From positions 2,794 to 66,793 of the forward strand of contig DATKAB010000161.1 of NCBI GenBank assembly GCA_035498555.1: a DNA stretch of 64,000 bases, read 5' to 3'. Origin of the DNA: Candidatus Sulfotelmatobacter sp. GTDB lineage: Bacteria > Eisenbacteria > RBG-16-71-46. The notes beneath the pieces were generated by a model. The model was not told where the DNA came from. It worked only from the letters and a program-made list of their open reading frames with translations, and did no database searches. A program made the translations under genes and the position numbers. Shown here piece by piece: positions 47,930-64,000 of the stretch (the stretch's first letter is position 1; the number at the start of each line of letters is the position of its first letter).

Positions 47930-49074
47930 AGGGGCGCATGGTGGTGCTGCTGGTGGACGCGCTCGGCTGGCGGCTCGCCAGCGAGAGCCCGGGATTCGCG
48001 ACCGGACTCGTTCATCGCCGGCGCCTCGAGACCATCCTCGGATTTTCCTCGGGGGCGCTCCCCACGCTGTTCACCGGCCGTACTCCCGATCAGCACGGCC
48101 GCTGGCTCATGTACCGGCGGGCGAACGGCTCGACTCCCTTTCGGGGATTCGGCGCGCTGGCTCTGCTGCCCGCGCGGCTGCGCGGCAGCCACCGGCTTGG
48201 AAGCTGGCTCAGGCGCGAGGTCGAGCGGCGCGGGGTGCATGGTTACTTCCACCTTTACGAGGTGCCGCGCGAGCTGCTCGAGCGGTTCGATCTGCCCGAG
48301 CGGGAAGACATCTTCGCTCCCGGTTCGCTGCCGATGGATTCGCTGTGGGACACCCTTGAGCGCCGTCGCATTTCCTGGCGCGGCTGGAATTGGCGCACGT
48401 CCGAAAGTGGCAATCTCGAGGCGCTGGCCGCGCGCGCCGCGATGGGGGACGAGCGGCTGCTGTTCTGCTACACGGCCGACCTCGATGCGCTGCTCCATCG
48501 GGACGGTTCGCGAGCCGGGGCGGTTCGCGAGCGCATGGCGCGTTACGACGGCTGGCTCAGCAGTCTCGCCGAGAAAGCCGAGGCGCGAGGTGAGCGGCTC
48601 TGGCTCTACCTGCTCTCCGACCATGGCATGGTGGACGTGGGGGAGACGCGCGATGTGATGGGGGCGCTGCAAGGCCTCGCGGTCCGATGGCCTGCGGACT
48701 ACCTGGCGTTCTTCGACTCGACCATGGCGCGGTTCTGGTGGCGCTCGCCCGCCGCGCGCGAGCCGGTGGTTCGCGCCCTGAATGCGCTGGGAGGCGGCCG
48801 CTGGCTCACTCGCGAGGAGCGCGCAGCGCAACGCACTCCCCCGGACTTCCGGGCCTGGGGCGAAGACGTGTTCCTGCTCGATCCCGGCGTGCTGATGGTG
48901 CCGTCATTCATGGGGCGCGGGCCACTCGCGGCCATGCACGGCTACGATCCCGCCCATCCCGACATGGCGGCGCTGCTGTGGTCGAACCGGCCGATTCCCG
49001 AATCGGTGCGGCATCTCACCGATGTGCGCGCGTTCCTCGAATCGGAGCTCGAGGCGCTGGAGGCCTCGGCGTGA
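47926..49074 (+). CDS. alkaline-phosphatase-superfamily enzyme (type I phosphodiesterase / nucleotide pyrophosphatase-like), cytoplasmic
   Basis: VVLLVDALGW N-terminal metal-site region, LLSDHGM motif, no TM/signal; ATGA overlap with upstream NTase-fold gene. Confidence 0.65.
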   Translation: MKGRMVVLLVDALGWRLASESPGFATGLVHRRRLETILGFSSGALPTLFTGRTPDQHGRWLMYRRANGSTPFRGFGALALLPARLRGSHRLGSWLRREVERRGVHGYFHLYEVPRELLERFDLPEREDIFAPGSLPMDSLWDTLERRRISWRGWNWRTSESGNLEALAARAAMGDERLLFCYTADLDALLHRDGSRAGAVRERMARYDGWLSSLAEKAEARGERLWLYLLSDHGMVDVGETRDVMGALQGLAVRWPADYLAFFDSTMARFWWRSPAAREPVVRALNALGGGRWLTREERAAQRTPPDFRAWGEDVFLLDPGVLMVPSFMGRGPLAAMHGYDPAHPDMAALLWSNRPIPESVRHLTDVRAFLESELEALEASA

Positions 49075-50651
49075 GGCGCGGCGAGATCGCACACACCGTT
49101 TCACGCGGCGCGTTCTACCTGACCCTCGAGAAGGCCGCGGCGCTGTTCTCGGGCGTCGCCTACTTCGCGTTGCTGCTCCGCTGGCTCGGCCCGACCAAGT
49201 ACGGAATCATGACGCTGGCACTGTCGTTCGCCGGACTAGCCACCATGATGAACGGGAACTTCGAGGTGTTCCTCGAGCGCTACGCCGCCGAGTACCAGGC
49301 GCACGGCCGGCTGCGCACGCTGCGCCGCGCGCAATTCCATGCCATGGGACTCAAGCTGGCGCTCGGCGCGGTGGCCAGTCTGGTCCTGGTCCTTGGCGCG
49401 CCCTTCATCGCCGTCCAATTCCACACCCCCGAGCTGTCCTACCTCCTGCCGATGCTGAGCCTGATGGTGCTGCTCGAGGGCTTCGCGTCCACCGGGCGCG
49501 CGACGCTGTACGGACTCCAGCAGTTCCGCTGGATGAGCGTGGTGGCGCTCGCGTTCCACATCGCGAAGACCATCATGGTGGGGCTCCTGTGGTGGCTCAA
49601 GCAGGGTCTGCCGGCGCTCGCGATCGGGCTCACCACGCTGGCGGTGCTGCAGGGCGCGGTCAGCGCCGCGATTCCCATGTGGATGCTGCGCCGCGCGCGC
49701 GACCCCGAGGGCGCGCCGCCCGGACTGAGCGGCAAACCGCTCACGCGCGCGATCCTGGGCTATTGCCTGCCGCTGCTCGGCGCACGGGTCACCTTCCTCT
49801 CGGGGCAGAATCTCGGCAAGATCGTGCTCGGCAAACTCTTCGACACCACCCTGCTCGGATTCTTCTCGTTCGCCTATCAGACCGTGGAGCGCTTCGTCGA
49901 GATGATCTTCGCGATTCCCTCGTCATTGCTGCCCTCGCTCACCCATCTGGTGGCGCGGGAAGAGCGCGATCGGCTGCGCTTCGTGTTCGATCAATCGTTG
50001 CGGATCATTCAGGTGGTGGCGCTGGTGCTGAGCTGCGGCATGGCCGTGTTCGCACGCGAGATCACGCTGGTGATCGGAAGCCCACTGTTCGAGCCCGCGA
50101 TCCCGATGCTTCGCATCATGGCCCTGGTCCCGATCGCGCGCACCGCTCAGCAGCCGCTGACCATGCTGTTCCAGGCGCTGCGCCTGCCCGGAACCGTGCT
50201 GGTGCTGGCGATCATCAAGTTCGTAACCGAGTTTGGCTGCTACTTCGCGCTGGTCCCCACGGTGGGCATCGCCGGGGCGGCCTGGGCGAACCTGGCCGGC
50301 GCCATCGTGTCCTACATCGTGGCGATGATCCTTCTCGATCAACTGGTGCCCGAAGGACGGGACGAGCGCACTCGCACCACCTGGCTTGGACTCGCCTGCT
50401 TCGCTCCGTTCCTGCTGCTCGGTCTCGTGATCGGCGATCACTTCGGCCATCTCGGCTCGACGCTCGCGCGACTCGCCCTGGTGCCGCCCACGCTCGCGCT
50501 CACGCTGGCGGTCGGCCTGGTGCGCCCGGCGGACTTCGAGCGGCTCAGTTCGTTCCCGCTGGAATCGACGTGGATGAGGCGGACGCGCGATCTGGTGGTC
50601 GCAGCCGCTCAGCGCACCGCGAACGCGCTGGTGCCGCGGAGGCTGCTGTGA
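49071..50651 (+). CDS. Wzx-type polysaccharide flippase (MOP superfamily)
   Basis: GTGA overlap with upstream; about 12-14 predicted TM helices, Polysacc_synt-like N-terminus (YLTLEKAAALFSGVAYFALLLRWLGPTKYG). Confidence 0.75.
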   Translation: MRRGEIAHTVSRGAFYLTLEKAAALFSGVAYFALLLRWLGPTKYGIMTLALSFAGLATMMNGNFEVFLERYAAEYQAHGRLRTLRRAQFHAMGLKLALGAVASLVLVLGAPFIAVQFHTPELSYLLPMLSLMVLLEGFASTGRATLYGLQQFRWMSVVALAFHIAKTIMVGLLWWLKQGLPALAIGLTTLAVLQGAVSAAIPMWMLRRARDPEGAPPGLSGKPLTRAILGYCLPLLGARVTFLSGQNLGKIVLGKLFDTTLLGFFSFAYQTVERFVEMIFAIPSSLLPSLTHLVAREERDRLRFVFDQSLRIIQVVALVLSCGMAVFAREITLVIGSPLFEPAIPMLRIMALVPIARTAQQPLTMLFQALRLPGTVLVLAIIKFVTEFGCYFALVPTVGIAGAAWANLAGAIVSYIVAMILLDQLVPEGRDERTRTTWLGLACFAPFLLLGLVIGDHFGHLGSTLARLALVPPTLALTLAVGLVRPADFERLSSFPLESTWMRRTRDLVVAAAQRTANALVPRRLL

Positions 50652-51352
50652 GTGCGCCGCGTGTACTGGTGATCGTCCCCGCACACAACGAGGCGGACAG
50701 CCTGCCGGCGACCCTGGCCGAGATCCGGGCGCGGGCGGACTGGTGCGACGTGCTGGTGGTGGATGACGGCTCGCGCGACCGCACCTCGGCGGTGGCCAGG
50801 GAGGCGGGGATACCGGTGGTGCGGCACGCCGTCAACCTGGGCGTGGGTGGGGCGCTCCAGACCGGATTCCGCTATGCCGTTGCCCATGGCTACGACATCG
50901 GAGTCCAGCTCGATGCCGACGGCCAGCACGATCCCGCGTTTCTGCGTGACCTGGTCGCCCCGGTGGCCGACGGTCGCTGCGACCTGAGCATTGGCTCGCG
51001 CTACGTGGCCCGTTCAGGCTACCGTGCTCCGGCGACGCGCCGGCTCGGCATGCTCATGTTCTCCGGAATCGTGCGTCTCGTGTTGCATCAGAGGATCGCC
51101 GATACCACTTCGGGATTTCGCGCCTATGGGCGCAGGGTCATGGAGGTGTGCCAGCACGACTTCCCCACGGATTTCCCGGACGCGCCGCTCCTGATCGCGC
51201 TGGCGCTGCGGCATTTCCGGCTGCTGGAAGTGCCGGTCGAAATGCGCGAGCGTCGCGCCGGACAATCGTTCTACACCCTGGGAAAGTCATTGTACTACCC
51301 GTACAAGAATCTGCTCGCGTCACTCATGGCCTGGCTGCAACGCCCGGCCTGA
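50648..51352 (+). CDS. GT2 polyprenyl-phosphate glycosyltransferase (Dpm1/GtrB/ArnC-like)
   Basis: GTGA overlap; VLVIVPAHNEADSLP, DxD (VLVVDDGSRD), QLDADGQHDP motif typical of ArnC/GtrB/DPM1. Confidence 0.8.
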   Translation: MSAPRVLVIVPAHNEADSLPATLAEIRARADWCDVLVVDDGSRDRTSAVAREAGIPVVRHAVNLGVGGALQTGFRYAVAHGYDIGVQLDADGQHDPAFLRDLVAPVADGRCDLSIGSRYVARSGYRAPATRRLGMLMFSGIVRLVLHQRIADTTSGFRAYGRRVMEVCQHDFPTDFPDAPLLIALALRHFRLLEVPVEMRERRAGQSFYTLGKSLYYPYKNLLASLMAWLQRPA

Positions 51353-51368
51353 TGAATCGGAGGCAACC

Positions 51369-51743
51369 ATGTTGTTCCTGTCGCGCACTCAGCTGATCGC
51401 AGCTCTGGGAGCGGTCGCGATGGCGCTCTACGTCCTCGATCTGGTTCGGCGCCGCCGGCTGTCCGAGGAGTATTCGCTGCTGTGGGTGATCGCCTCCAGC
51501 ATCATCGCGATCCTCGGATTCTGCACGCCGCTGCTGCTCTGGGTCACCCAGCTGCTCGGCATCCTCGGCGCGGCCTCGACGGTGTTCGCCTTCGGTCTGG
51601 CGTTCGCGATGGCGATGCTGCTGTACCTCTCGGTCAAGATGTCACGGCTCGGGCAGCAGAATCAGGCGCTCACGCAGGAACTGGCGTTGATGCGTCACGA
51701 GCTGGAGCGGCGTGGCGCACCGGAACGGACGGGGGACGCGTGA
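51369..51743 (+). CDS. DUF2304-family small membrane protein
   Basis: 124 aa, 3 TM helices plus C-terminal coiled coil (LGQQNQALTQELALMRHELERR); commonly paired with GT2 enzymes. Confidence 0.6.
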   Translation: MLFLSRTQLIAALGAVAMALYVLDLVRRRRLSEEYSLLWVIASSIIAILGFCTPLLLWVTQLLGILGAASTVFAFGLAFAMAMLLYLSVKMSRLGQQNQALTQELALMRHELERRGAPERTGDA

Positions 51744-52750
51744 GCCAGCGACTCAAGCTGATCATCGGCATCGCGGTGTCGGTGGTGTGCGTCTGGGTGT
51801 CGATGCACGATGTGAAATTGAGCGAAGTCTGGAACGCGCTGCGCCATGCCAATTACCTCGGGTTCGCCGCGGTGATGGCCCTGACCCTGCTGGGATTCTG
51901 GATTCGCGCGGTGCGCTGGCGCTCGCTGATCGCCGCCCCGCGGCCGATCTCGACCGATAGCCTGTTCTCGGCCACGATGATCGGTTTCATGGCCAACAAC
52001 GTGCTGCCCTTCCGGCTCGGCGAGTTCGTTCGCCCCTGGGCGCTCGCCCGCCGAGAAAAGCTGTCGAAGACCACGCTGCTGGCGACCGTGGTGGTGGAGC
52101 GCGCGGTCGACATGCTGACCCTGCTCGGCATCCTCGGGATCTCGCTGCTGGTGCACCCCGCTTCGGTGTCGGCCCGTACCGAAGCCGGACGGATGACCCG
52201 GGCCGGCGCCGGCGTGCTGGTATTCATGTGCGTGGGGCTGACCGCGTTCGTCATCGCGCTGGAGTGGTCGCCACGCCTGGCGCACGGGGTGGTGCACTGG
52301 CTGACCCGCCCGTTGCCGGAGACGGTCCGGCGGCGCGTGAGCGCCATGCTCACCCATTTCTTCGAAGGACTCGGGCTGTTCCGCGATCTGCCGCGGCTGG
52401 CCTGGGTGTTCGCGCTGTCGTTCCTGATGTTCGGCGTCTTCGCGCTCGGGCTGAGCGTGTGCATGTGGGCGCTCAGCCTGTCGGTCCCCTGGTACGCCGG
52501 GCTGATCATGCTGGTGATCACCGCCATTGGCATCATGGTGCCGGCGGCACCCGGATACATCGGAACGCTCAATCTGGCGTGCATCGCCGGCCTCGCTCTG
52601 TTTGGCGTGAGCAAGGATCTGGCGGCGCCATTCTCATGGTTCTACTGGGCGAGCCAGTGGCTGCCGGTCACCGGGGTGGGGCTGTTCTACCTCCAGCGTG
52701 AAGGGCTCTCGCTCCGCTCGCTGGGACAAGCCCAGGAGGCGGCGGCGTGA
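51740..52750 (+). CDS. flippase-like membrane protein (UPF0104 / lysyl-PG-synthase TM-domain family)
   Basis: GTGA overlap; 8 TM helices, RxxR and NNVLPFRLGEFVRP motif resembling PF03706. Confidence 0.6.
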   Translation: MSQRLKLIIGIAVSVVCVWVSMHDVKLSEVWNALRHANYLGFAAVMALTLLGFWIRAVRWRSLIAAPRPISTDSLFSATMIGFMANNVLPFRLGEFVRPWALARREKLSKTTLLATVVVERAVDMLTLLGILGISLLVHPASVSARTEAGRMTRAGAGVLVFMCVGLTAFVIALEWSPRLAHGVVHWLTRPLPETVRRRVSAMLTHFFEGLGLFRDLPRLAWVFALSFLMFGVFALGLSVCMWALSLSVPWYAGLIMLVITAIGIMVPAAPGYIGTLNLACIAGLALFGVSKDLAAPFSWFYWASQWLPVTGVGLFYLQREGLSLRSLGQAQEAAA

Positions 52751-52758
52751 GCCCGGCT

Positions 52759-53967
52759 TCACGCCCGGAAGTGTCCGACGATCTTCCGAATCGCGGCCGC
52801 GACGTCGTCGACGTCGCGCTCGGTCATGGTGGGGAAGAGCGGCAGCGAGATCGCGCGCCGGTAGGCGTCTTCGGCCACCGGGAACTGTCCTTCGCGCACC
52901 CCAAGCGAATCGCGGAAGTGGGGGTGGAGGTGGATCGGGATGAAGTGCACCGAGCTGCCGATGTTCTCGGCGCGCAGCTCGGTGATGAAGCGCGCGCGAT
53001 CGATGCGCAGCCGCTCCAGTTCGAGTCCGATCGGGTAGAGATGCCAGGCGTGCGTGGCGCCCGGGCGCGTGACCGGGCGGCGGATCTCGGGCAGCTCCGA
53101 CAGCAGCGTGTCGTAGCGCGCCACCCGTTCGCGGCGCAGGCGCTGGAGCTCGTCGAAGCGCTCGAGCTGCCCGAGGCCGATCGCCGCCAGCACATCGCTC
53201 AGGTTGTACTTGTAGCCGGGTGCGGTGACCTCGTAGTACCACGAGCCGGTGTCGGTGTAACGCTTCCAGGCGTCGCGGTTCATGCCGTGGAGCGAGAGCA
53301 GTCCGAGCCGCTCGGCCAGCTCGTCGTCGTCGGTCACGGCCGCCCCGCCTTCGCCGGTGGTGAGATTCTTGGTGGCGTAGAACGAGAACGCAGTGACGGT
53401 CGCAAGCGAGCCGATCGGTTTTCCGCGCCAGGCCGCGCCCAGCGCGTGTGCGGCGTCCTCCACCACCGGAGCCTCGATCCGCTCCGCGAGCGGCAGGATG
53501 CGGTCGTAGTCGCAAGGATGCCCGGCGTAGTCCACCGGCAGCACCGCGCGCGTACGTGGGGTGAGCGCGTCCTCGAGCGCCGCGGGGTTCATGCACAGCG
53601 TGTCGGGTTCGACGTCCACCAGCACCGCGCGAGCGCCGACGTGCTCGATCACGTTCACGCACGCCGCGAAGGTGTACGTCGAGGTGATCACCTCGTCCCC
53701 GTGGCCGACGCCGAGCGCCACCAGCGACAGGTGCAGCGCCCCGGTGGCCGAGTTGAACGCCAGGCCGTGTCGAGCACCGGCGAGCTTCGCGACCCGCTCG
53801 GCCAGCTCGATGCTCTTCTTGCCGGTGGTGATCCAGCCCGAATCGAGGGTCTCGAGCACCAGCTGCTTCTCGCGCTCCCCGATCGCCGGAATGGCGAGCG
53901 GCAGGAAGCGCTCCCGGACCGGGCGTCCTCCCTGCGAGGCCAGGGGCTCCGGCGGTGCCGTCTTCAC
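52759..53967 (-). CDS. DegT/DnrJ/EryC1/StrS-family PLP-dependent sugar aminotransferase
   Basis: SATGALHLSL, PLP-lysine FSFYATKNLTTGEGG, DAAHALG; convergent with upstream operon, divergent from wzx2. Confidence 0.9.
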   Translation of the reverse strand: MKTAPPEPLASQGGRPVRERFLPLAIPAIGEREKQLVLETLDSGWITTGKKSIELAERVAKLAGARHGLAFNSATGALHLSLVALGVGHGDEVITSTYTFAACVNVIEHVGARAVLVDVEPDTLCMNPAALEDALTPRTRAVLPVDYAGHPCDYDRILPLAERIEAPVVEDAAHALGAAWRGKPIGSLATVTAFSFYATKNLTTGEGGAAVTDDDELAERLGLLSLHGMNRDAWKRYTDTGSWYYEVTAPGYKYNLSDVLAAIGLGQLERFDELQRLRRERVARYDTLLSELPEIRRPVTRPGATHAWHLYPIGLELERLRIDRARFITELRAENIGSSVHFIPIHLHPHFRDSLGVREGQFPVAEDAYRRAISLPLFPTMTERDVDDVAAAIRKIVGHFRA

Positions 53968-54110
53968 GAGGCTCGGGATCCGGTTCGCATCAGGGCAAAT
54001 AGTCTAGGCGAGCGCTCGGAATCTCACCAGCGGCGACGGCGCGCGCGCGCGCCCGCCGCGGCGGCGAAGGCTCGAACGCCTTCCGCCGCGTCCCGCTGAC
54101 CGAGCGCGCC

Positions 54111-55640
54111 ATGCACCCCCGAAAGCTGGTTCGCGACTCGATCGGATACGCCACCTCGCAGTTCATCGTCCGCGCCGCGATGATCGTGCGCACGGTGCTG
54201 GCCGCGCGCTGGCTGGGGCCTCAGGCCTATGGCGCGTGGAATGCCCTCCAGCTGATGATGGACTACGGCACTCTTGCCCCGCTCGGAACTCAGCAGGGCC
54301 TCGATCAGCGCGTGCCGCGCGCGATCGTGGACGGCGATCCGGTGCGTCTTGCCCGAATCAAGCGCGCCGGCTTCACCAATATCCTCCTTCTTACCGGGTT
54401 GTTCTGCGCGACGGGCATCGTCTACCTCTCGCGCTCGAACGGCAGGATCATGTCCTTCTGGGCGGGGGCCGGCATGCTGGTGGCGATGGCCGTCGTGCTC
54501 CTCATCAATTGGGCCAATTACCACACGACGTTGCTCCGCTCGCACGGCAACATCGGCGCGGTGAGCCGATGGTTCTTCGTCCAGGGCATGGTGGGCGCGG
54601 TACTCGGCCTCGCCCTGATTCCATGGCAGGGAGCCTGGGGCCTGCTGTGGGGCTGGCTGCTGGGAACGCTGGTGTCGTTCGCCTGGACCCGGTGGGACGC
54701 TCGGAAACTCGCGCCGCTCCGGCCACTGATCGGCTCCGAAAACGGCGACCTCCTGCGCGTGGGCTTCCCGCTGTTCTTCTTTCTCGGCTCGGCGCTGGTG
54801 ATGCGCAGCCTCGATCGGCTCATCATTCTTCGCTTTCTCGGCACGCGCGAGCTGGGTTACTACAGCCTGGCGGTGACCGCGCTGACGCTGCTCATGTACG
54901 TGCCCGACTCGGCCACCTACGTGCTCTACCCCCGCTTGCTCCAGGGCTACCGGGCGGGCGGGGACCAGCCCGAGGCGATCCGCGACCACGTCATCGTCGC
55001 GCTCACCGTGCTGAGCACGCTGACGCCGGCTCTCGGTGGGCTGGCATTTCTGGCCGCGCGCGATCTGATCGGTGCGGTGCTGCCCAACTACATCGCCGGC
55101 GCCACCGCGGTCCGGGTGCTGTGCTTCGGCGCGGCGGCGCTGACGCTTTCGAATCTCGCCTCGATCGTGCTGATGACCCTCGGCCGCCAAGTGTGGCTGA
55201 TTCCCATCGCCGTGCTGTTCACGGCCGCCTGCGGCTTCGCCGATCTCGAGGTGCTGCGGCGCGGCTACGGGATCAGCGGAGTCGCCTGGGCGACGCTCGC
55301 CACCTACGTGGCGAGCGGCATGGTGGTGCTGGCGCTGGCCCTGGCCGCGCTGGGTGCCGGCTGGCTCGGCACGCTCCGACGCCTGTTCGGGTGCGCGTGG
55401 GCGTTGCTCGCGGCGATCGGGATCGCCGTCGGGCTCGATCGGCTGCTGCCCTGGCGCAACACCACCGACGAGGCGGTCCGGCTGATTCGCGTCGGGCTCG
55501 AGTGGTCGGCATTCGCGATCAGCTATGCCCTGGCGGTGCGGCCTCTGCTGCGCGAGATCGGGCTGCGACAGGTGTTGTCGGAGTTCAATCTGCCCTTTGC
55601 CTCGCTCTTGCGCCGCGACCCCGGAGGGGCCGGAAAGTGA
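54111..55640 (+). CDS. second Wzx/MOP-superfamily polysaccharide flippase
   Basis: 509 aa, about 14 TM helices, Polysacc_synt-like N-terminus. Confidence 0.7.
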   Translation: MHPRKLVRDSIGYATSQFIVRAAMIVRTVLAARWLGPQAYGAWNALQLMMDYGTLAPLGTQQGLDQRVPRAIVDGDPVRLARIKRAGFTNILLLTGLFCATGIVYLSRSNGRIMSFWAGAGMLVAMAVVLLINWANYHTTLLRSHGNIGAVSRWFFVQGMVGAVLGLALIPWQGAWGLLWGWLLGTLVSFAWTRWDARKLAPLRPLIGSENGDLLRVGFPLFFFLGSALVMRSLDRLIILRFLGTRELGYYSLAVTALTLLMYVPDSATYVLYPRLLQGYRAGGDQPEAIRDHVIVALTVLSTLTPALGGLAFLAARDLIGAVLPNYIAGATAVRVLCFGAAALTLSNLASIVLMTLGRQVWLIPIAVLFTAACGFADLEVLRRGYGISGVAWATLATYVASGMVVLALALAALGAGWLGTLRRLFGCAWALLAAIGIAVGLDRLLPWRNTTDEAVRLIRVGLEWSAFAISYALAVRPLLREIGLRQVLSEFNLPFASLLRRDPGGAGK

Positions 55641-57604
55641 AAGTCCTGGTGACCGGAGCGACCGGTTTCATCGGTCGCCGTCTGCTCGACCATCTGCTCG
55701 GGGCCGGCCACGAGGTGGTGGCGGCCGTGCGTCGTCCGGCGCCCGAGCTCGACCCCGAGCGCGTGACGGTGATCGAGGTGCGTCTCGACGATCGCGACGG
55801 GCTGACGCGCGCGCTCGCCGGCTGCGACGCGGTAGTTCACCTCGCGGTCGCGACCGGCGCCATCACCGAACGCGCGGCGTACGACGTGAACGTGGTGGGC
55901 ACCGAGCATCTGCTCGAGGCCTCGCGGCTGGCAGGAGTCGGCCGTTTCGTCTTCGCGTCCACGATTTCGGCGACGCGCGAACGCATGGGTCCCTACGGGC
56001 GGACCAAGCGTCTGGCCGAAGCGCGTGTGGCGGCTTCGGGGATTCCGTTCTGCACGTTGCGCCCTTCACTGGTCTATGGCGGCCGCGAGGGCCTGGTCGC
56101 GAACCTGACCGCCTACCTGATCGGCCTGCCGATCATTCCGGTGATGGGAGACGGCACGGTCGAACTCGACCCGATCCACGTCGACGACGTTTGCGCCGCG
56201 ATCCTGTGCGCGTTGCGCGACCAACATTTGCTGGGAAACACCTACGACCTGCTCGGGCCGGATCGCGTCACCTTCAACCAGTTCCTCGACCGGCTCTCGA
56301 CGGGCCTTGGAGTGAAGCGGCCCTACCTTCACGTTCCCGGCGAGATCGCGCTCGCGATGGCGCGCGTGCTCGGTTTGGTCCTCAAGCGTCCGCCCATCAC
56401 CGTGGACAACGTGCTCGGCATGATCTCGCCGGCGCGCGTGGAGCGGGAGCGGGCGCGGCGTGATTTCCGGATGGCGTGGACCTCGCTCGATCAGGGGCTG
56501 CTCGGAAAATCCGCCAATCCGCCGCCGGCTCGCGCGAGCGCGGCGGGCTCGATCCTGCGCGACGGCCCGTCGCGCCCGCTGCGCGTCGCCATCGTCGGGC
56601 TCGGCAAGATGGGCATGGTGCACGCCGCGGTGCTCTCGTCGATGGACGAGGTGAGCCTGGTCGCGTTCGTGGACCGCTCGCCCGCTCTGGCGAAGACCCT
56701 CTACGGCATGGGATTCCGGGCGCCCTACTGCGCCACGCTCGAGCAGGCGCTGGAACGGGCCCGCCCCGACGCGGTGTGGATCTGTACGCCGCCCGACTCG
56801 CACGCCCCGATCGCCGAAGCCTGCCTGAGCGCGGGAGTCGCCGCCTTCATCGAGAAGCCGCTCGCGCAGAACCTGGAGGACGCGCGCCGGATCGAAGCGG
56901 CCGCGAAGCGATCGGATCGCGCGACCGCGTGCGGCTACGCGCAGCTCTTCTTCCCGTGCTTCGGGGCCGCCGTCGAGCTGCTGCGCGCGAACGCGATCGG
57001 CAGGATCACCGGGATCCGCTCCTCGATGTTCCTCTCGCAGGTGTTCGGCCCGCAGAAGGGTTGGATCGCGGATCCCCGGCGCTCGGGCGGCGGCGTGGTC
57101 GCGAATCTCTCGTCGCACCTGCTGGCGCAGTTGCGGGCCGCGTTCGGGCAGCCGGTCCGCGTCCGCGCACGGTGGAAGAAGATGTACGGCGAGGTCGAAG
57201 ACCAGCTCGACGCGACGTTGACGCTCGCGGACGGAACCGAGATCGAGTTCGCGTCGTCGTGGAGCGTGCCCGATTTCCCGATCTCCTCGACCACGATCGA
57301 AGTGACCGGCGACAACGGAACGATGAAGGTGACCAACGACTCCGTCGAGCTGGAGCTGCGCGAGGCCCGCGCCGAGCGGCCGGTGGGCCGCAGCGTGCTG
57401 CGCGCCGCCGAGCTCCCGGCACGAGCGAGGTTCGAGCTCAACGGCGAGTTCTACGACCTCGAGGACGCGGAGTTCCTCGCTTCGGTCGCGGGCGGACCTG
57501 CCGCCCGCGCCAGCGTCGAGCTCGGCGCCGATGTTCAGCGCGTGATGAGCGCACTCTACGAGTCGGCGGAGCGCGACGGCGAATCGGTGGAGGTACCGCG
57601 ATGA
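55637..57604 (+). CDS. fusion protein: NAD-dependent epimerase/dehydratase (SDR) domain + Gfo/Idh/MocA oxidoreductase domain
   Basis: GTGA overlap; N-terminal VLVTGATGFIGRRLLDHLL...YGRTKRLAE (YxxxK); C-terminal RVAIVGLGKMGMVHAAV...EKPLA Rossmann and GFO_IDH_MocA core; 655 aa. Confidence 0.8.
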   Translation: MKVLVTGATGFIGRRLLDHLLGAGHEVVAAVRRPAPELDPERVTVIEVRLDDRDGLTRALAGCDAVVHLAVATGAITERAAYDVNVVGTEHLLEASRLAGVGRFVFASTISATRERMGPYGRTKRLAEARVAASGIPFCTLRPSLVYGGREGLVANLTAYLIGLPIIPVMGDGTVELDPIHVDDVCAAILCALRDQHLLGNTYDLLGPDRVTFNQFLDRLSTGLGVKRPYLHVPGEIALAMARVLGLVLKRPPITVDNVLGMISPARVERERARRDFRMAWTSLDQGLLGKSANPPPARASAAGSILRDGPSRPLRVAIVGLGKMGMVHAAVLSSMDEVSLVAFVDRSPALAKTLYGMGFRAPYCATLEQALERARPDAVWICTPPDSHAPIAEACLSAGVAAFIEKPLAQNLEDARRIEAAAKRSDRATACGYAQLFFPCFGAAVELLRANAIGRITGIRSSMFLSQVFGPQKGWIADPRRSGGGVVANLSSHLLAQLRAAFGQPVRVRARWKKMYGEVEDQLDATLTLADGTEIEFASSWSVPDFPISSTTIEVTGDNGTMKVTNDSVELELREARAERPVGRSVLRAAELPARARFELNGEFYDLEDAEFLASVAGGPAARASVELGADVQRVMSALYESAERDGESVEVPR

Positions 57605-58479
57605 GCCGGACCCACTTCACCGTTCCGCGGCTGCTGCTCTCGGGGGAGGCGCTGCTCGGCATCACGCGGCATCCGCGCGAGCACACGCTCGAGGTCAAGC
57701 GGCGATACGACAACGGAGCCGCGCTGGCGGCCGCGCTGTCCCTGGCGCTCGACCGCGGCGCGGACGGCGTGCTGTTCACGCCCTCGGCCACCGTGCGCGA
57801 AGCCCTGGGTGGCCTGTCGCGCCGCGTCCCCACCTGGGCGGTGGTGCCCAACGTGCCGCAGTTCGCGCGCGATTCGGCCGAGCTCGGCCTTCCAGGCGCG
57901 GCGCTCAAACGGCTGCGCGGCGCAAGCCCGATCACCTTCGCGCGAATCGGGCTCACCGGGGCCGGTCACGTGCTCGAAGTGTTGAAGAACGACATCGGGG
58001 GTATGGCGCCGGTGCTGATCGAGCTCGAGATCGCTTCGCTCGGCGCGCGCGACCTGCACGGCGTGGTGATGGCGTCCACGCTCACCGACCTGGCGCTGGC
58101 CGCGCGCCACCGGCGATTCTTCAGCCACGTGGTCGACTTCGTTCGGTCACGCTTTGGCGTCCAGGCCGGCTTCGAGACGCACAATCCCGGCTGGTTGCTC
58201 GGGGCTCTGCGCGAATGGGACGTGCGGCCCGATCTGGTGGTCGGCCCGCTGAATCCGATGGGCTTCATGATGAAGCCCGATCCGGCGCGCACCCTCCGCG
58301 AGATCGCGGCCGCCCGCTTCCCGCTGGTGGCGAAAGAGCTGACCGCCGGGGGCGCGAACCCGCTGGCCGTCGGCGCCGCCTACGCTCGTGCCCACGGCGC
58401 GCAGGGCCTCGCCATCGATCTCGCCGACCTCGATCCGGACATGGGGGGGCTCACCGCATTGGGGGAGGCGGGCGGATGA
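57601..58479 (+). CDS. hypothetical protein (no recognisable family), ATGA-coupled between fusion oxidoreductase and membrane protein
   Basis: Intact 292-aa ORF in an operon context with coding-like codon usage. Confidence 0.5.
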   Translation: MSRTHFTVPRLLLSGEALLGITRHPREHTLEVKRRYDNGAALAAALSLALDRGADGVLFTPSATVREALGGLSRRVPTWAVVPNVPQFARDSAELGLPGAALKRLRGASPITFARIGLTGAGHVLEVLKNDIGGMAPVLIELEIASLGARDLHGVVMASTLTDLALAARHRRFFSHVVDFVRSRFGVQAGFETHNPGWLLGALREWDVRPDLVVGPLNPMGFMMKPDPARTLREIAAARFPLVAKELTAGGANPLAVGAAYARAHGAQGLAIDLADLDPDMGGLTALGEAGG

Positions 58480-60521
58480 ACCGTGCCGGCGAAGACGGCG
58501 CCGGCGCACGCGCCGTTCGAAGCCTGGGTGTGGTCGCGGCCGCGCTGGTCATGCTGCCGCTCCGTCTCCCGAATCCGGTCGCGGCCCTGGCGCTGGCGAT
58601 CACTCTTGCCTGGCTCCCGGGATGCCTGTTGACGGATTCGATCCGAGCGCTCCGCGATCGCGGCGAGCGGATCCTCGCGTCGCTGGCACTCTCGCCGGCG
58701 CTGGCCGGCGGCGCGGGCGCTCTGCTGATGGGCCTGGGAGCGGCCCCCCTGCTCGCGACGCGAATCGTGGCGGCGGCGCTCTTCATCGGCGCACTGTGGC
58801 GGGCGTTTGCGCCGCGTGGTGGGGACGGCATGCGTGCGGGGGATTGGCACGCGGAGGCGGCACCCACGGCGATCGCTCCGGCGCTGTTGTGGGCGTCGAT
58901 CGTGGCGGCGTTCCTCGCCGCCAATATCTACCTGCCGCCGCGCTCCGACGGCTGGTTTCACGCCGGAGTCACGCAGCAGATCGCGCTACGCGGGCTGCCG
59001 GTCGAGGATCCATCCTACGCCGGGTTGCGGCTCCTCTACTTCTGGGGCACCGATCTGTGGGCGGCGTTGTGGCTGGCGCGGGGGCCAGGCCTCGCGGTGT
59101 GGACACCGCTGATCACGCTCAACGTCGCGGCGGCGATGGCGGTGATCCTCGGCGTCTGCGCGATTGCCCGCCGGCTCGGCGCCACTCGCGGCGGGCAGTG
59201 GCTGGCGGCGGCGCTCGCGATTCTCGGCTATTCGCCGTTCGCGTGGGTCTGGGTGGTGGCGCGCGCGGCTGGTGGGGAAGTGCGCGGACTCGCGGAGCTC
59301 CAGCGCCTGATCGCCTCCGGCGCCGACACCGCGTTGCGCGCGCTCGGGGTGGGGCAGTTGCACGCTTCGCTCTCCACGTTTGCAGACAAGTTCCTGGTGC
59401 TGACGCCGTTCGGACTGGGCCTCGCTCTATTTGCGCTGTTCCTGATCGGGCTGCGCGAGGTTGCGGACACACGCGGATCGCGACCGGCGGTGCTGCTCGC
59501 GCTGGTGGCCGCCGCGACGCTGTTCACCCACACCGTGGCGGGGTTCAGCGCGCTGGCGGTCGCCGGCGTGTGGGGAGCCGCGGAGCTCGCGCGCGGAGGA
59601 CCGCGCCGGGCCGCGGCGTTGCGCGCGGCGCTCGCGCTGCTGGCCGGCGTGGCGCTGGCGGTGCCCTATCTGCTGGCGGTCACTCACGGCAAGCACGCGG
59701 CGATTGGCCCCGGGTTCTCGCGCGGCGCGGTGGGTTCGCTGGTGCTGGGCGGCGCGCTGCTGGTTCCCGCCGGCGCCTGGGCCGCGTGGCGCTTCTCTCG
59801 CGCGCGGCCGATCGCGGCGGATCTGTTGATCGCAATGGGCGTGCTCGCCGCCTTGGGGCTCCTGCTCAAGCTGCCCGAGAGCAACCAATCCAAGTTCTTC
59901 AATCTGCTGTTCCTGGTCGCAGCGGCGCCGGCGGCGCTGGCGATTCTGGCGCTGGCCGAGCGCGCGCTGCCTCCGGCGCGTATCGTGATCGCGATCGCCG
60001 TGGCCCTGGCCGTGCTGCCCACCGCCGCGCTCTGCGCATGGGGCTTCGCCGCCGAGCGCGGACAGAGCCTCGACTCCTGGCATTTCCCAGCCCCCGAGGT
60101 GATGGCGGCCTGGCGCTGGCTCGCCGGCCACACGGGGCGGAACTGCGTGGTCGCCGACGAGGGCGGCGCGCGCGAGCCGATGGTCTACGCGGCGCGCTCG
60201 GCACTGGCGCCCGGTGCGAGTCTGGAGCGTGATTGGGGTTATGCGCCGTCGGAGGTCGCGGTGCGCAAGCGCGCCTCGCGCGAGCTGGCGACGCGCGGCC
60301 CGCTCTCGAGCACCACCGACTCGCTGCTGCGCGCTCTCGGCCGCGAGGTGGTGGTGGTCGAGCGCCGCGCCGGGGCGCCGGGCGACCTGGCCCGGCAGAC
60401 CGTCGCGCCGCCAGCGAATTCAGCGGGCGCGCGCACCGGCGAGGCCAGGCGCGAGCCGCGCTACGCGTTGATCCGCGATGCCGGCGCGATGGCGTTCTGG
60501 CGGGTGGAGCTCCCGCGATGA
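58476..60521 (+). CDS. large polytopic membrane protein (about 681 aa), putative GT-C-fold glycosyltransferase/polymerase
   Basis: ATGA overlap; more than 12 hydrophobic helices, Ala/Leu-rich; no soluble domain. Confidence 0.55.
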   Translation: MNRAGEDGAGARAVRSLGVVAAALVMLPLRLPNPVAALALAITLAWLPGCLLTDSIRALRDRGERILASLALSPALAGGAGALLMGLGAAPLLATRIVAAALFIGALWRAFAPRGGDGMRAGDWHAEAAPTAIAPALLWASIVAAFLAANIYLPPRSDGWFHAGVTQQIALRGLPVEDPSYAGLRLLYFWGTDLWAALWLARGPGLAVWTPLITLNVAAAMAVILGVCAIARRLGATRGGQWLAAALAILGYSPFAWVWVVARAAGGEVRGLAELQRLIASGADTALRALGVGQLHASLSTFADKFLVLTPFGLGLALFALFLIGLREVADTRGSRPAVLLALVAAATLFTHTVAGFSALAVAGVWGAAELARGGPRRAAALRAALALLAGVALAVPYLLAVTHGKHAAIGPGFSRGAVGSLVLGGALLVPAGAWAAWRFSRARPIAADLLIAMGVLAALGLLLKLPESNQSKFFNLLFLVAAAPAALAILALAERALPPARIVIAIAVALAVLPTAALCAWGFAAERGQSLDSWHFPAPEVMAAWRWLAGHTGRNCVVADEGGAREPMVYAARSALAPGASLERDWGYAPSEVAVRKRASRELATRGPLSSTTDSLLRALGREVVVVERRAGAPGDLARQTVAPPANSAGARTGEARREPRYALIRDAGAMAFWRVELPR

Positions 60522-63112
60522 TCCGCTCGAAGCGCGTTCGAACTGCGCTGCTGGTGATGGGGTTGTTGCTCGTCCAGCTCGCTCTTCGCCATGGATTACT
60601 CGGCTCGCTCCCCGAATCGCTCCGCCTCACCCTCGCATTCTCGGCGTTGGTGCTCTTGCCGGGCTACGCGTTCGTCCGACTCGGTGCGCGCCCGAACGAG
60701 AGTGGGGCGTTCGTTCCGGTCTGGGCGCTGGGCATGGGAGTGGCCTGGAATGCTCTGCTGATTCTCGCGACCCGCATGAGCGGGGCGCGATTCACCGTGC
60801 TGCTCGACTGGAGCCCGGCAATCACGCTCGCACTCTGGCTGCTGGTCGGGGTGCTGCCACGGCGTCGAGCCAACCGAGACACCCCGCCCACTCCGGCCCG
60901 GCTGCGTGGGGCGGCGCTGGGACTGGTGCTCGTGGCCGCGGCACTGGCCGCTTTCCATGCCGGGCGGATGGGCGCGCCTGTCTACTACTCCAGCGATTCG
61001 CCCGATCACATCGCGACCATCCGCCGGATGCTGATCTCCGGCGACGCGTTTCCGCGAGACGCGTTCTTCCGCGACGCCGGCCCGGGCGGCGCCGATCCGC
61101 GCAAGGGACTGTGGCATCCGCAGGTGGCGCTGATCTGCGCGCTCGCGCATGTGGATCCCGCCGACGGCTGGCGGAAGCTGCCGGTCGCGATCGCCCCGCT
61201 CTTCATCCTCAACGCCGCCTGGTTCGGCTGGCTGAGCGCGCAGGGCGCCGGCGCCGCACTGTTCGCGTGGCTCGAACTCATCGTGCTGGCGGGCGCGATC
61301 AACTGGTGCCCGCTTCGCAAGGCCGACTTCGCCACCTTTCTCGGCGACCAGCTGGCGCTGGGTTGCGCCATCGCCGTTCTGAGCGATGCCGGGCGACCTT
61401 CGCGTGCCGCGCGCTGGACCGCGATTGGCATCGGGCTCGGCGCCATCGCCTGCCACGTGTTTGCGGCACTTCAATTCGCGCTCGTGTTCACCGCGCTCGC
61501 GGTGGCGCTGGCCATCCGCGAACGTTCGGTGCGCGGCCCGTCGTGGAGAGTGATGCGGACGGCGCTCACCCTCGGCCTCATCTCCCTGCCCTATCTGCTG
61601 TGGCGCGTTCACCAGTCCGGGCCGCCGGTGAACATCATCCACACCGAGCCGCAGGGATTGCTCTACGTCACCGATCGCATCCAGGTGGTGTCGATTGGAG
61701 TGCTGTGGGACTGGATGGGGATCCTGTGGGTGCTGTTCCCGATCTCGTGGTGGTGGCTGTGGCGCGAAGGCAAGCGCGATCCCGCGGCGCTTTACGCGTT
61801 CGCGACGTCGATCGCCGTCGCGCTGGTGATCTTCGATCCGCCGGTGGTGGCGCTGCTGGCGCCGAAGCTCGGCTACCTCCTCATGCGCTTGATCTGGATG
61901 GTGCCGGTCGCGCCGTTGATCGGCTGGCTGACGCTGGCGCTGATGCGCGCGATCCGCTCGGGCGCGCATCGGGCGCCCGCGGTCGTCGCGCTGGCCGCGC
62001 TCGGATTGTCGTTGGCGCCCACCGCGCGCGATGCCGCCGCGACCTTCTTGAACCCGGAGCCGATCATCGAGGTGGATCGCGACGAGAGCCCGTTCCGCTG
62101 GCGGGAAGCAATGACCTGGCTGGACACCCGCTTGCCGCCCGGACAAGTGGTGCTGTCGGATCCCGCCACCTCATACGGCATTCCGATGCTCACGCGCCAG
62201 TACGTGGTGACCCTGGTGGACCAGCACAGCTCGCCCAGCGACTCGACCGCGCTGACGCGGCTGCTCGATGCGCGCGACGCGCTCGACCCGTACGGCAGCT
62301 GGGAGCGGACACGCCAGGTGATCAAGCGCTGGGGTGCCACGATGATCGTGATCAATTCGGATTTCTCGAGCACGCCCCACTTCGCCTACTGGGAGCCGAG
62401 CGTCGAGTGGGCGGAAGCCGCGCGAGCGCGATTCGACTCGGCGCCGGCCGCATTCGAGCGCCTCGCCGACATTCGCGGGTTCACCATTTATCGAATCCAT
62501 CCCCAGGCGCTCGACACCCTGAGCAGTCCGCCGCTCCCCCGGCCGTTCGTGGTGCCATTCGTCTCCGGTCGCTTCCCGATCGCGCATCGCTACGATGACC
62601 GGGCGCCGGCGATCCTCGATCTGCGCCTGTGGCCGCAGCGCGCGTCGCGCGGCGACTCGCTCACCGGCGTCGCCGAATGGCGCGCCCTTCGGCCGCTGCC
62701 GCCGGGTTCCTACGCGGTCGCGGTGCGCTTCGATCGCCCGTTGCCCGGCGGGTTCGAGCCACCCGCGCTGCTCGCGAAGCCCGCCCGCAAGCTGCTCGAG
62801 AAGCTCAATCACGAGCGCTACCGCTTCCGGCGCGATTATCTGCCGGTCGAAGGCGCCTACGGAGTGGACCTGTGGCGGCCCGATCAGGTGGTGCGAGACA
62901 CCTTCGGAATGAGGATTCCTGGCGATGTCGCTCCAGGCTGGTATCGCGTGCAGATCCGGATGGTCCGCCAGCCGATCTATCCCATGCTTCGCCTGAGCGA
63001 TTACTTCTTCGACCACGATTACTTTTCCGGCGTCGAGACGGGTACACTCGAAGTGCTCTCGCCCGCCGGCAGCCGCGAGCGCGGGAACTCACCTCCCCTC
63101 GAGGGGCACTGA
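60518..63112 (+). CDS. large membrane protein (about 864 aa): N-terminal about 480-aa polytopic domain + about 380-aa C-terminal extracytoplasmic domain; putative GT-C-fold (ArnT/PMT-like) glycosyltransferase
   Basis: ATGA overlap; topology resembles GT39/GT83 enzymes; acidic loop YYSSDSPDH after the early TMs. Confidence 0.5.
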   Translation: MIRSKRVRTALLVMGLLLVQLALRHGLLGSLPESLRLTLAFSALVLLPGYAFVRLGARPNESGAFVPVWALGMGVAWNALLILATRMSGARFTVLLDWSPAITLALWLLVGVLPRRRANRDTPPTPARLRGAALGLVLVAAALAAFHAGRMGAPVYYSSDSPDHIATIRRMLISGDAFPRDAFFRDAGPGGADPRKGLWHPQVALICALAHVDPADGWRKLPVAIAPLFILNAAWFGWLSAQGAGAALFAWLELIVLAGAINWCPLRKADFATFLGDQLALGCAIAVLSDAGRPSRAARWTAIGIGLGAIACHVFAALQFALVFTALAVALAIRERSVRGPSWRVMRTALTLGLISLPYLLWRVHQSGPPVNIIHTEPQGLLYVTDRIQVVSIGVLWDWMGILWVLFPISWWWLWREGKRDPAALYAFATSIAVALVIFDPPVVALLAPKLGYLLMRLIWMVPVAPLIGWLTLALMRAIRSGAHRAPAVVALAALGLSLAPTARDAAATFLNPEPIIEVDRDESPFRWREAMTWLDTRLPPGQVVLSDPATSYGIPMLTRQYVVTLVDQHSSPSDSTALTRLLDARDALDPYGSWERTRQVIKRWGATMIVINSDFSSTPHFAYWEPSVEWAEAARARFDSAPAAFERLADIRGFTIYRIHPQALDTLSSPPLPRPFVVPFVSGRFPIAHRYDDRAPAILDLRLWPQRASRGDSLTGVAEWRALRPLPPGSYAVAVRFDRPLPGGFEPPALLAKPARKLLEKLNHERYRFRRDYLPVEGAYGVDLWRPDQVVRDTFGMRIPGDVAPGWYRVQIRMVRQPIYPMLRLSDYFFDHDYFSGVETGTLEVLSPAGSRERGNSPPLEGH

Positions 63113-63116
63113 GCAT

Positions 63117-64000
63117 GTGCGGCATCAACGGCGTCTTCCACTACGGCTCCGACACCCCCGCCGATCGCGCGCTGGTCGAGCGGCAGGCGCTGTGCATGCA
63201 GCATCGCGGTCCGGATGACTGGGACGTGTGGTGCGAGGGACCGGTCGGACTGGGGCATCGCCGGCTCGCGATCGTCGATCTCTCGCCCGGCGGACATCAG
63301 CCGATGCCCAACGAGGACGGCTCTCTGTGGGTGACCTATAACGGCGAGCTCTACGGCTGGCCCGAGATCCGCGCCGAGCTGGCCTCGCGCGGCCACCGCT
63401 TCCGGGGTCTGAGCGACACCGAGGCGCTGCTCCATCTCTACGAGGAGCAGGGCACGAAGCTCTTCCCGCGCCTGCGCGGCATGTTCACCTTCGGGCTCTA
63501 CGACCGGCCGCGGCGCCGGATCCTGCTCGGGCGCGATCGCTTCGGAATCAAGCCGCTCTACTACCACGACGACGGCAAGCGCCTGGTCTTCGCCTCCGAG
63601 CTGAAAGCGCTGATGCTCGACCCCACGGTGCCGCGGGAAGTTGACGAGCAGGCGCTGGCCGACTACCTCACGTTCCAATACGTGCCCGCGCCGCGCAGCA
63701 TCTTCCGGGCGGTGAAGAAGCTGCCGGCCGGGCACTTCCTCACCTGTGACGCGAGCGGAGTGAAGGTCGAACGCTACTGGGCCCTTCCCGCCGAGCCCGA
63801 TCGCGGGCATCCGCTCGAGTTCTATCGCGAGCGGTTGCGCGACCTGCTCGCCGAGGCGGTGCGCCTGCGGATGGTGGCCGACGTGCCGCTCGGCGCGTTC
63901 CTCTCGGGCGGCATCGATTCGAGCGTGGTGGTGGCACTGATGAGCGCCGCCAGCTCGAAACCCGTCAAGACGTTCAGCATCGGTTTCGAGGAGCAGGATT
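63117..64000 (+). CDS. asnB: asparagine synthetase (glutamine-hydrolysing), N-terminal part (runs off window)
   Basis: MCGINGV (Cys2 nucleophile), RGPDDW, LAIVDLSPGGHQPM, SGGIDSS PP-loop. Confidence 0.9.

Follow-up and report, generated by a model that had tools for sequence, protein, structure and literature searches.

A predicted lipid-carrier glycosylation module with GT-C-fold membrane proteins in an exopolysaccharide locus of Candidatus Eisenbacteria

Introduction

Three-component systems that include glycosyltransferases of the GT-C fold are well established. Candidatus Eisenbacteria are common in soils, sediments and groundwater and are uncultured; to our knowledge, nothing is known about their surface glycans. 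Here we describe nine genes at positions 50648-63112 of a 64,000-nucleotide stretch (the window: contig DATKAB010000161.1 of assembly GCA_035498555.1, positions 2,794 to 66,793 of the forward strand), labelled Candidatus Sulfotelmatobacter sp. and placed by GTDB in Eisenbacteria. They lie inside an exopolysaccharide (EPS) locus and encode a family 2 glycosyltransferase (GT2), a small DUF2304 membrane protein, candidate flippases and two large membrane proteins with a predicted GT-C fold. On balance we favour, with modest confidence, the reading that they form a multi-component extracytoplasmic glycosylation pathway in a Wzx/Wzy-type polysaccharide locus with Wza and polysaccharide co-polymerase (PCP) export, in which a GT-C enzyme adds a lipid-carried sugar to the polysaccharide.

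A preliminary description of this DNA had taken Arn and Gtr as models, but the closest named analogues, closer than Gtr, are GacI/J/K/L and PpgS/Rv3632/Rv3779. The GacI/J/K/L system, which makes the N-acetylglucosamine (GlcNAc) side chain of the Group A carbohydrate of Streptococcus pyogenes, likewise combines a soluble-type GT2 with a DUF2304 activator, a Wzx-family flippase and a GT-C in one polysaccharide locus, and its gene order, I-J-...-K-L, is mirrored by GT2-DUF2304-...-Wzx2-GT-C in the window. Unlike the Gac locus, the window derives from a diderm with a Wza/PCP export locus, has an extra LPG_synthase_TM protein and a DegT aminotransferase, and encodes GT-Cs of uncurated families. In the system of PpgS (Rv3631), Rv3632 and Rv3779, which places galactosamine on mycobacterial arabinogalactan, Rv3779 is the GT-C enzyme that completes transfer of the amino sugar. 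PpgS, the mycobacterial polyprenyl-phosphate-GalNAc synthase, was the best match of the window GT2, and Rv3632 is its DUF2304 partner; here, however, the match scored 102 vs 370 bits, the genes are clustered in an EPS locus and the acceptor differs.

Three further systems bear comparison. The ArnB/ArnC/ArnE-F/ArnT pathway, which modifies lipid A with aminoarabinose, resembles the module in its ArnB-like aminotransferase, ArnC-like GT2 and GT-C-fold transferase, and a small EamA-like protein with four transmembrane (TM) segments in the Krumholzibacteriota version of the locus recalls ArnE/F. It differs in that no ArnA or ArnD was detected in 43672-64000, the equivalog cutoffs were missed, the setting is a polysaccharide locus and the flippases in the window are of other types. 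GtrA/B/C and the pentofuranose system would share with the module a polyprenyl-phosphate-sugar donor, a flippase and a GT-C (PMC11127046), and Kelly et al. 2024 described GT-Cs with C-terminal carbohydrate-binding modules, auxiliary short-chain dehydrogenase/reductase (SDR) epimerases whose substrate is the lipid-linked sugar, and "more elaborate systems" in which several GT-Cs occur (PMC11127046). Unlike systems of the GtrA/B/C type, the window module is the conserved part of its locus across the phylum rather than variable or phage-borne, its synthase is a GT2 with DUF2304, and its flippase candidates are UPF0104 and Wzx proteins, not GtrA. Archaeal AglD with a neighbouring PMT/STT3-like enzyme (Makarova et al. 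2015, PMC5898192) also unites a Dpm1-like GT2, a UPF0104 module and a GT-C-like enzyme, but it serves N-glycosylation of S-layer proteins with dolichol carriers, and domains that are fused there are separate genes in the window.

The window locus would work in the same way as these three-component systems but, because all equivalog cutoffs were missed, it is not an ortholog of any named one. What is new about it are its uncurated GT-C families, the joint presence of a GacI/J-type synthase and a UPF0104 flippase candidate within a diderm Wza/PCP locus, and the position of the module as a constant core across the phylum. The locus thus offers a concrete, conserved and modular pathway for surface glycans of Eisenbacteria, adds two uncurated GT-C families with a candidate catalytic motif and one uncurated soluble domain family, and provides a bacterial case of the GT2, UPF0104 and GT-C trio hitherto predicted mainly in archaea. 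Within it, lipid-linked periplasmic glycosylation would be the constant part and the cytoplasmic steps the variable part. The conceptual gain is moderate, as the general mechanism is already well known.

Results

Nine genes form the module

Since the window has ~69% G+C, we picked reading frames by third-position GC content (GC3), translated them, and scanned the products against Pfam and NCBIfam. This yielded nine genes between 50648 and 63112:

50648-51352, plus strand: GT2, 234 aa (PF00535, E 4e-26)
51369-51743, plus strand: DUF2304 small membrane protein, 124 aa (PF10066, E 8e-21)
51740-52750, plus strand: LPG_synthase_TM/UPF0104 flippase-like protein, 336 aa (PF03706, E 6e-49; TIGR00374 above cutoff)
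52759-53967, minus strand: convergent DegT-family pyridoxal-phosphate-dependent sugar aminotransferase, 402 aa (PF01041, E 6e-123)
54111-55640, plus strand: Wzx2, Polysacc_synt/MOP flippase, 509 aa (PF01943, PF13440)
55637-57604, plus strand: SDR::GFO fusion, 655 aa (Epimerase at residues 3-195, GFO_IDH_MocA at 315-652)
57601-58479, plus strand: g292, a soluble orphan of 292 aa that matches no family
58476-60521, plus strand: GT-C-fold glycosyltransferase by AlphaFold2 (AF2) and Foldseek, 681 aa, the optional paralog
60518-63112, plus strand: GT-C-fold glycosyltransferase by AF2 and Foldseek, 864 aa, the constant member

Every gene listed in the preliminary description proved real, with the right coordinates and size; its list of seven had omitted Wzx2 and g292. 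A GGAGG-like ribosome-binding site precedes every start and five junctions overlap by 4 nt, features that mark one tightly coupled operon, the convergent DegT gene excepted. The arrangement is far beyond chance, as the same order recurs in dozens of species-level genomes.

The two large membrane proteins adopt a predicted GT-C fold

Homologs of the large membrane proteins numbered 238 for the 864-aa protein and 93 for the 681-aa protein, and those with taxonomic labels came almost all from Candidatus Eisenbacteria metagenome-assembled genomes (MAGs). Profiles of the two families matched nothing among PDB sequences, even at E<=10. Weak matches to DUF6541 (PF20176) were found in 15 of 40 homologs of the 864-aa protein (best E 2e-10) and 5 of 40 of the 681-aa protein, and the two window proteins themselves did not match this profile even at E<=1. 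Both families are probably distant relatives of the uncharacterised DUF6541 family, on which a literature search returned nothing.

AF2 models built on 40-sequence alignments reached a pLDDT of 92.6 and a pTM of 0.92 for the 864-aa protein and 91.8 and 0.93 for the 681-aa protein. Searched against the PDB with Foldseek, the models matched at probability 1.00 GT-C enzymes only (DPY19, AftA, STT3 of oligosaccharyltransferase (OST), ArnT, PglB, AglB), with E values of 6e-8 to 8e-4 for the 864-aa protein and 2e-6 to ~1e-3 for the 681-aa protein. AftA ranked first for the 681-aa protein and third for the 864-aa protein, whose best matches were DPY19 and STT3. Models and fold matches thus agree with the GT-C-like character first suggested from topology. 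Identity with Wzy, O-antigen ligase (WaaL) or a transporter, which would have argued against that suggestion, was rejected: there was no such significant Foldseek match and no Pfam match, Wzy_C included. The GT-C proteins carry four extra N-terminal helices and large C-terminal domains. The C-terminal part of the 864-aa protein consists of an alpha/beta domain and a beta-sandwich, and the latter weakly resembles the Wzt carbohydrate-binding domain (Foldseek E ~0.02).

BLASTP detected no similarity between the 681- and 864-aa proteins. Aligned as families with hhalign, they matched over 570 columns with 98% probability and an E value of 2e-13, and by this sequence comparison they are distant paralogs. 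Both families share an invariant S-D-x-x-x-H motif, in which S159-D160-S-P-D163-H164 of the 864-aa protein aligns to R-S157-D158-G-W-F-H162 of the 681-aa protein, and an acidic FP-D/E motif is also aligned and invariant between them. Within the 864-aa family the invariant residues are D160, P162, D163, H164 and D193-P-R-K...W199-H200. The SDxxxH motif sits after a TM helix, and the loop before that helix has six Arg/Lys residues. This K/R-rich loop, together with the basic N-terminus, indicates that the SDxxxH loop is periplasmic, where GT-C enzymes hold their catalytic acidic residue; the positive-inside pattern of these proteins becomes unclear beyond the first periplasmic loop. We regard SDxxxH, which lies in that loop, as a candidate catalytic motif.

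The GT2 is paired with a DUF2304 protein

The GT2 aligned over its full length with the Pyrococcus dolichol-phosphate-mannose (Dol-P-Man) synthase (DPMS, PDB 5mlz; E 1e-15) and with ArnC (E 2e-11), and in this alignment it keeps DDGS and the D91-A-D93-x-Q-H motif, so that the DPM1/ArnC-type motif predicted for it is indeed present. Its best NCBIfam match was PpgS (NF058614), at 102.1 bits against a cutoff of 370, and this equivalog threshold was missed, as was that of ArnC (44.2 bits vs 529); the other top NCBIfam matches were Dol-P-hexose transferase, AglJ and ArnC. No TM helix or other hydrophobic segment was found in it. Judged by these alignments, the GT2 is a polyprenyl-phosphate glycosyltransferase of the DPM1/ArnC/GacI/PpgS class.

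The DUF2304 gene starts 17 nt 3' of the GT2 gene, and the pair was found in 32 of 33 species (see below for the sample). DUF2304 is the family of GacJ and Rv3632, which bind to GacI and PpgS and stimulate them; the undecaprenyl-phosphate-GlcNAc is then used by the GT-C enzyme GacL (10.1101/180810). Because these relatives form complexes with the GT2 and stimulate it, the window protein is best read as an activator or anchor rather than as the "small flippase" it had initially been taken for; the flippase candidates are LPG_synthase_TM and Wzx2.

Two candidates for the flippase of the lipid-linked sugar

LPG_synthase_TM/UPF0104 belongs to the MprF flippase-domain family. The window protein scored above the TIGR00374 cutoff, and its gene was present in all 33 species, including two that lack Wzx2. 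Wzx2 was found in 31 of the 33 and in most of them lies immediately 5' of the 864-aa GT-C, the position that corresponds to that of GacK. We favour LPG_synthase_TM as the flippase for the lipid-linked sugar, since it is retained in the two species without Wzx2, and consider Wzx2 the alternative. Archaeal UPF0104 domains occur fused to AglD, the Dol-P-hexose synthase, with PMT/STT3-like enzymes as neighbours (PMC5898192); bacterial members of the domain family are found with aminoglycolipid synthases, as in GpgSDF (PMC12713373).

The module is conserved and frames a variable slot

We scanned one genome per GTDB species, which gave 80 loci, and mapped the window proteins on them by tblastn. Among the 33 Eisenbacteria-type species with at least 9.9 kb of sequence 5' of the 864-aa GT-C, the GT2, LPG_synthase_TM and DegT were each present in 33/33, DUF2304 in 32/33 and Wzx2 in 31/33. 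By comparison, the 681-aa GT-C was found in 10/33 and the SDR::GFO fusion with g292 in 6/33. The tandem GT-C pair and the fusion, which the preliminary description had singled out as unusual, are therefore real but not part of the core; of the two GT-Cs only the 864-aa protein is constant.

The interval between DegT and the 864-aa GT-C was complete in 45 loci, with the following window genes inside:

Wzx2 as the sole matched window gene: 27/45 loci
Wzx2 and the 681-aa GT-C: 7/45 loci
the full set: 6/45 loci
the fusion and g292, without the 681-aa GT-C: 2/45 loci
no window gene: 2/45 loci
the 681-aa GT-C only: 1/45 loci

Thus, 14 of the 45 carried the 681-aa GT-C. In 22 of the 27 intervals with Wzx2 only, the interval spanned ~1.6-1.9 kb and contained nothing else; the other five were longer and had extra genes. 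These contents indicate that the constant module frames a variable slot, in which the fusion and the tandem GT-C pair occur as optional cassettes, and the slot between Wzx2 and the 864-aa GT-C is a hot spot for glycan diversification. In three of the five loci with longer intervals (L018, 6000-10000; L023, 6900-10000; L049, 6200-11000) the slot before the 864-aa GT-C held another Wzx-like protein and a 326-aa GT2, and in L018 also an S-adenosylmethionine-dependent methyltransferase.

Thirteen more distant loci, several of them labelled Krumholzibacteriota, shared ~25% identity in the GT-C. In one of these (L079) the frame reads Wza-PCP-ATPase-kinase-like-PDE-Wzx, where PDE is a Phosphodiest-like protein, followed by a 225-aa GT2, a 140-aa protein with four TM segments, a GT-C homolog with the motif A-D-S-L-D-H...DPRKGLWHP, and GT4 genes. 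The 140-aa protein (9522-9944 of L079), which has weak EamA/TMEM234 similarity and is ArnE/F-like, replaces both DUF2304 and LPG_synthase_TM. Across the Krumholzibacteriota-type loci with enough upstream sequence, tblastn detected Wza, PCP, the kinase-like protein and the PDE in 8/8 and the GT2 in 7/8. The GT2 and the GT-C thus stay linked while the type of flippase is swapped, and this is the strongest comparative argument that they belong to one pathway.

Near-identical or orthologous loci also occur in automated MAG sets under the labels Sulfotelmatobacter, Limnocylindria, Saccharimonadaceae, Udaeobacter, Acidiferrales or Binatia (P0214, L003, L033, L051, L067). These labels are probably binning or labelling errors, because the bulk of such contigs is labelled Candidatus Eisenbacteria.

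The sugar-modifying genes

The nearest solved relatives of the DegT protein were three ArnB structures (318-301 bits), with WbpE at 165 bits; in NCBIfam it scored 374.6 bits against ArnB (cutoff 631) and 365 bits against PseC, both below cutoff. From these relationships it probably makes a 4-amino sugar, which would be the donor sugar or a part of the repeat unit. The GFO domain of the fusion is closest, among solved structures, to scyllo-inositol and L-glucose dehydrogenases and to glucose-fructose oxidoreductases. For the SDR domain, with its GATGFIG and YxxxK motifs, the closest relatives are NDUFA9-type and HpnA/OleD-type reductases, and no 4,6-dehydratase signature was visible in it by eye. 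The suggestion that Gfo/Idh/MocA and DegT cooperate as WbpB and WbpE do in making an amino sugar therefore fails: DegT is ArnB-like rather than WbpE-like (318 vs 165 bits), the GFO domain resembles inositol and glucose dehydrogenases, and DegT, universal at 33/33 vs 6/33 for the rare fusion, is independent of it.

The fusion itself is genuine. In 8/8 carrier species it is a single uninterrupted frame of 650-672 aa with two distinct domains (3-195 and 315-652 in the window) and a variable Pro/Ala-rich linker, and this stop-free frame rules out a frameshift artefact.

The g292 protein, which always accompanies the fusion in the loci compared, had no match in Pfam or NCBIfam, and its profile gave only noise against PDB sequences. 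It has 74 close homologs, few with taxonomic labels and those mostly Eisenbacteria. A profile search of 1.84 billion representative sequences returned 548 clusters (at 50% identity), some with proteins that join the domain to a PMT_2 GT-C, a WecG/TagA transferase or a GT2 (P0318, P0374, P0411); one family member gave a faint aldo/keto-reductase signal. On account of these glycosyltransferase fusions and that signal, we consider g292 an uncurated and probably enzymatic domain linked to glycan synthesis.

Proposed pathway

In the pathway that we propose, the soluble 234-aa GT2 would be held at the membrane and activated by DUF2304, as in GacI/GacJ and PpgS/Rv3632, and would load polyprenyl phosphate with one sugar, taken from a nucleotide sugar, at the cytoplasmic face. 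LPG_synthase_TM/UPF0104 or, less favoured, Wzx2 would flip the polyprenyl-phosphate-sugar, and the 864-aa GT-C would then transfer the sugar in the periplasm to the lipid-linked or growing polysaccharide of the locus, before export through Wza. Where it is present, the 681-aa GT-C would add a sugar at a second site or in a second linkage, and the fusion with g292 would act as an optional redox or tailoring cassette that alters the identity of the sugar. From the ArnB-like DegT we expect a 4-amino sugar at some point of the pathway, in the donor or the repeat unit. The logic of GT2, flippase and GT-C put forward earlier holds so far as sequence, structure and synteny can tell, with the exception of the flippase role given to DUF2304 and the WbpB/WbpE reasoning.

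Several points weigh against this proposal. Neither large protein matches a Pfam or NCBIfam family, and hence neither falls in a curated GT-C family; DPY19 and STT3, among their top fold matches, are protein glycosyltransferases. The flippase assignments are ambiguous, because there are three candidates for perhaps two lipid-linked species, and no initiating phosphoglycosyltransferase was found in the sequence examined. Its constancy within the locus also sets the module apart from classical three-component decoration systems, which are usually variable accessories. Finally, what we observed directly is gene content, folds, motifs and co-occurrence, and from these we infer every chemical step, the sugar, the lipid carrier and the acceptor.

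A bolder version of the proposal, which we hold to be unlikely, is that the 681- and 864-aa proteins found new CAZy-level GT-C families defined by S-D-x-x-x-H and that, far from being an optional decoration, they form with the GT2 the obligatory, phylum-wide core of an EPS pathway common to Eisenbacteria and Krumholzibacteriota. Part of the polymer, possibly a cationic 4-amino sugar, would then be installed or polymerised in the periplasm from a polyprenyl-phosphate-monosaccharide, and in some species the fusion and g292 would epimerise the lipid-linked sugar by oxidation followed by reduction, in analogy to DprE1/DprE2.

Alternative acceptors and products

The resemblance to Arn raises the alternative that the acceptor is lipid A or the lipopolysaccharide (LPS) core. 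DegT would make a 4-amino sugar, the GT2 would load it onto undecaprenyl phosphate and the GT-Cs would act like ArnT, thereby changing surface charge. The nearest solved and curated relatives of DegT are indeed ArnB, ArnC can be aligned with the GT2, the fold matches include ArnT, and the presence of LptF/G indicates that the genome makes LPS. Yet the ArnB and ArnC equivalog cutoffs were missed widely (375 vs 631 and 44 vs 529 bits), neither an ArnA-type decarboxylase/formyltransferase nor ArnD was detected in 43672-64000, synteny is fixed in two phyla inside a Wza/PCP/Wzx/GT4 polysaccharide locus, and the 864-aa GT-C bears a large C-terminal domain with a beta-sandwich like the carbohydrate-binding domain of Wzt. 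We regard lipid A modification as improbable.

The same low probability attaches, in our view, to protein glycosylation, in which the GT-Cs would O-, N- or C-glycosylate secreted or surface proteins in the manner of PMT, STT3/PglB or DPY19. That DPY19 and STT3 are the best folds for the 864-aa protein speaks for it, but what these matches reflect is the shared GT-C core, and AftA and ArnT score similarly. Fusion of the g292 domain family to PMT_2 in another organism and the tie of LPG_synthase_TM domains to archaeal S-layer N-glycosylation also point this way, against which the scans gave no WWDYG-type or PMT family signal and the neighbourhood is one of polysaccharide export and assembly.

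The GT-Cs might instead build a chain or long branch processively from polyprenyl-phosphate-monosaccharides, like the Emb, Aft and Mpt enzymes of mycobacterial arabinan and mannan. Periplasmic polymerisation would account for the module being the constant core of the locus, and it fits both the rank of AftA (top fold for the 681-aa protein, third for the 864-aa protein) and the invariance of the 864-aa GT-C and the GT2 across species and into a second phylum while the cytoplasmic glycosyltransferases vary. On the other hand, relatives have Wzx, GT4s and at least one Wzy_C, enough for a classical repeat-unit pathway, and the sequence holds nothing that separates processive from single-addition GT-Cs; we think polymerisation distinctly improbable. 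Synthesis of an aminoglycolipid as in GpgSDF or HexSDF, with the GT2 glycosylating a glycerolipid, LPG_synthase_TM flipping the glycolipid to the outer leaflet and the GT-C genes as mere neighbours, is suggested by the UPF0104 flippases that accompany the glycolipid synthases in GpgSDF, but it is very improbable given that GpgS is a GT4 with an adjacent deacetylase, the latter absent here, that the flippase family is the sole shared part, that a DPM1/ArnC-class GT2 and DUF2304 are both tied to polyprenyl-phosphate acceptors, and that GT2 and GT-C remain linked where the flippase type is swapped.

The surrounding EPS locus and its flanks

Glycosylation of the exported polysaccharide, as we propose it, would take place within a locus that starts about 7 kb upstream of the GT2 and runs past the end of the window. 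Its remaining genes in the window are:

43672-44541, plus strand: Wza-like outer-membrane polysaccharide export protein, with which the EPS locus begins (Poly_export and SLBB)
44541-45953, plus strand: PCP or chain-length determinant, 470 aa, 2 TM (EpsF and pepcterm_ChnLen, below cutoff)
45950-46726, plus strand: tyrosine-autokinase-like P-loop protein (partial matches to TIGR01007 and TIGR03018)
46733-47929, plus strand: 398-aa soluble protein without Pfam or NCBIfam match (nucleotidyltransferase-like G-S...D-x-D motif by eye)
47926-49074, plus strand: Phosphodiest-like soluble protein of the alkaline-phosphatase superfamily, the PDE (PF01663, E 2e-10)
49071-50651, plus strand: Wzx1, MOP-family flippase with multiple TM segments (NCBIfam MOP flippase, O-glycosylation Wzx, TuaB); start codon approximate
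63115-64000, plus strand, cut by the window end: asparagine-synthase-family amidotransferase (best match TIGR03108, XrtA/PEP-CTERM amidotransferase)

In relatives the locus goes on with GT4 glycosyltransferases, a Wzy_C gene in at least one and a polysaccharide deacetylase in another. With this continuation and the upstream export genes (Poly_export/SLBB, EpsF-like determinant, autokinase-like protein, Wzx1), and with the amidotransferase present, the original designation as a Wza-Wzc-type EPS locus stands. The best NCBIfam match of the Wza-like protein was an XrtA/PEP-CTERM export protein, below cutoff, and its gene keeps its position in both Eisenbacteria and Krumholzibacteriota loci. The chain-length determinant has TM segments at both ends. 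The amidotransferase gene lies directly 3' of the 864-aa GT-C in 35 of 48 species.

The autokinase-like protein has a degenerate Walker A sequence, S-S-Q-A-G-E-G-T-T-T, in which Lys is replaced by Thr, and a single Tyr near its C-terminus; one possibility is that it serves the chain-length determinant as a pseudo-kinase partner. The 398-aa protein and the PDE adjoin each other beside the Wza, PCP and kinase genes, at 46733-49074 in the window and at 4921-7324 in L079. Synteny of the former is kept, and tblastn found it in 2/8 Krumholzibacteriota-type loci; the PDE gene was found in 8/8 of these and in most Eisenbacteria loci.

On the 5' side, the EPS locus is preceded by a housekeeping block of nusA-infB-truB, PNPase, an M16 peptidase and an aminotransferase. 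Immediately 5' of the Wza gene, at 41540-43452, are genes for a DUF3108 protein and a GSU2086-family protein (380 bits, above cutoff). Further upstream (20276-28067), a minus-strand LptF/G permease gene adjoins that of a 2085-aa protein resembling SprA, which belongs to the type IX secretion translocon. This pair fits an FCB-group diderm with LPS and a type IX secretion system.

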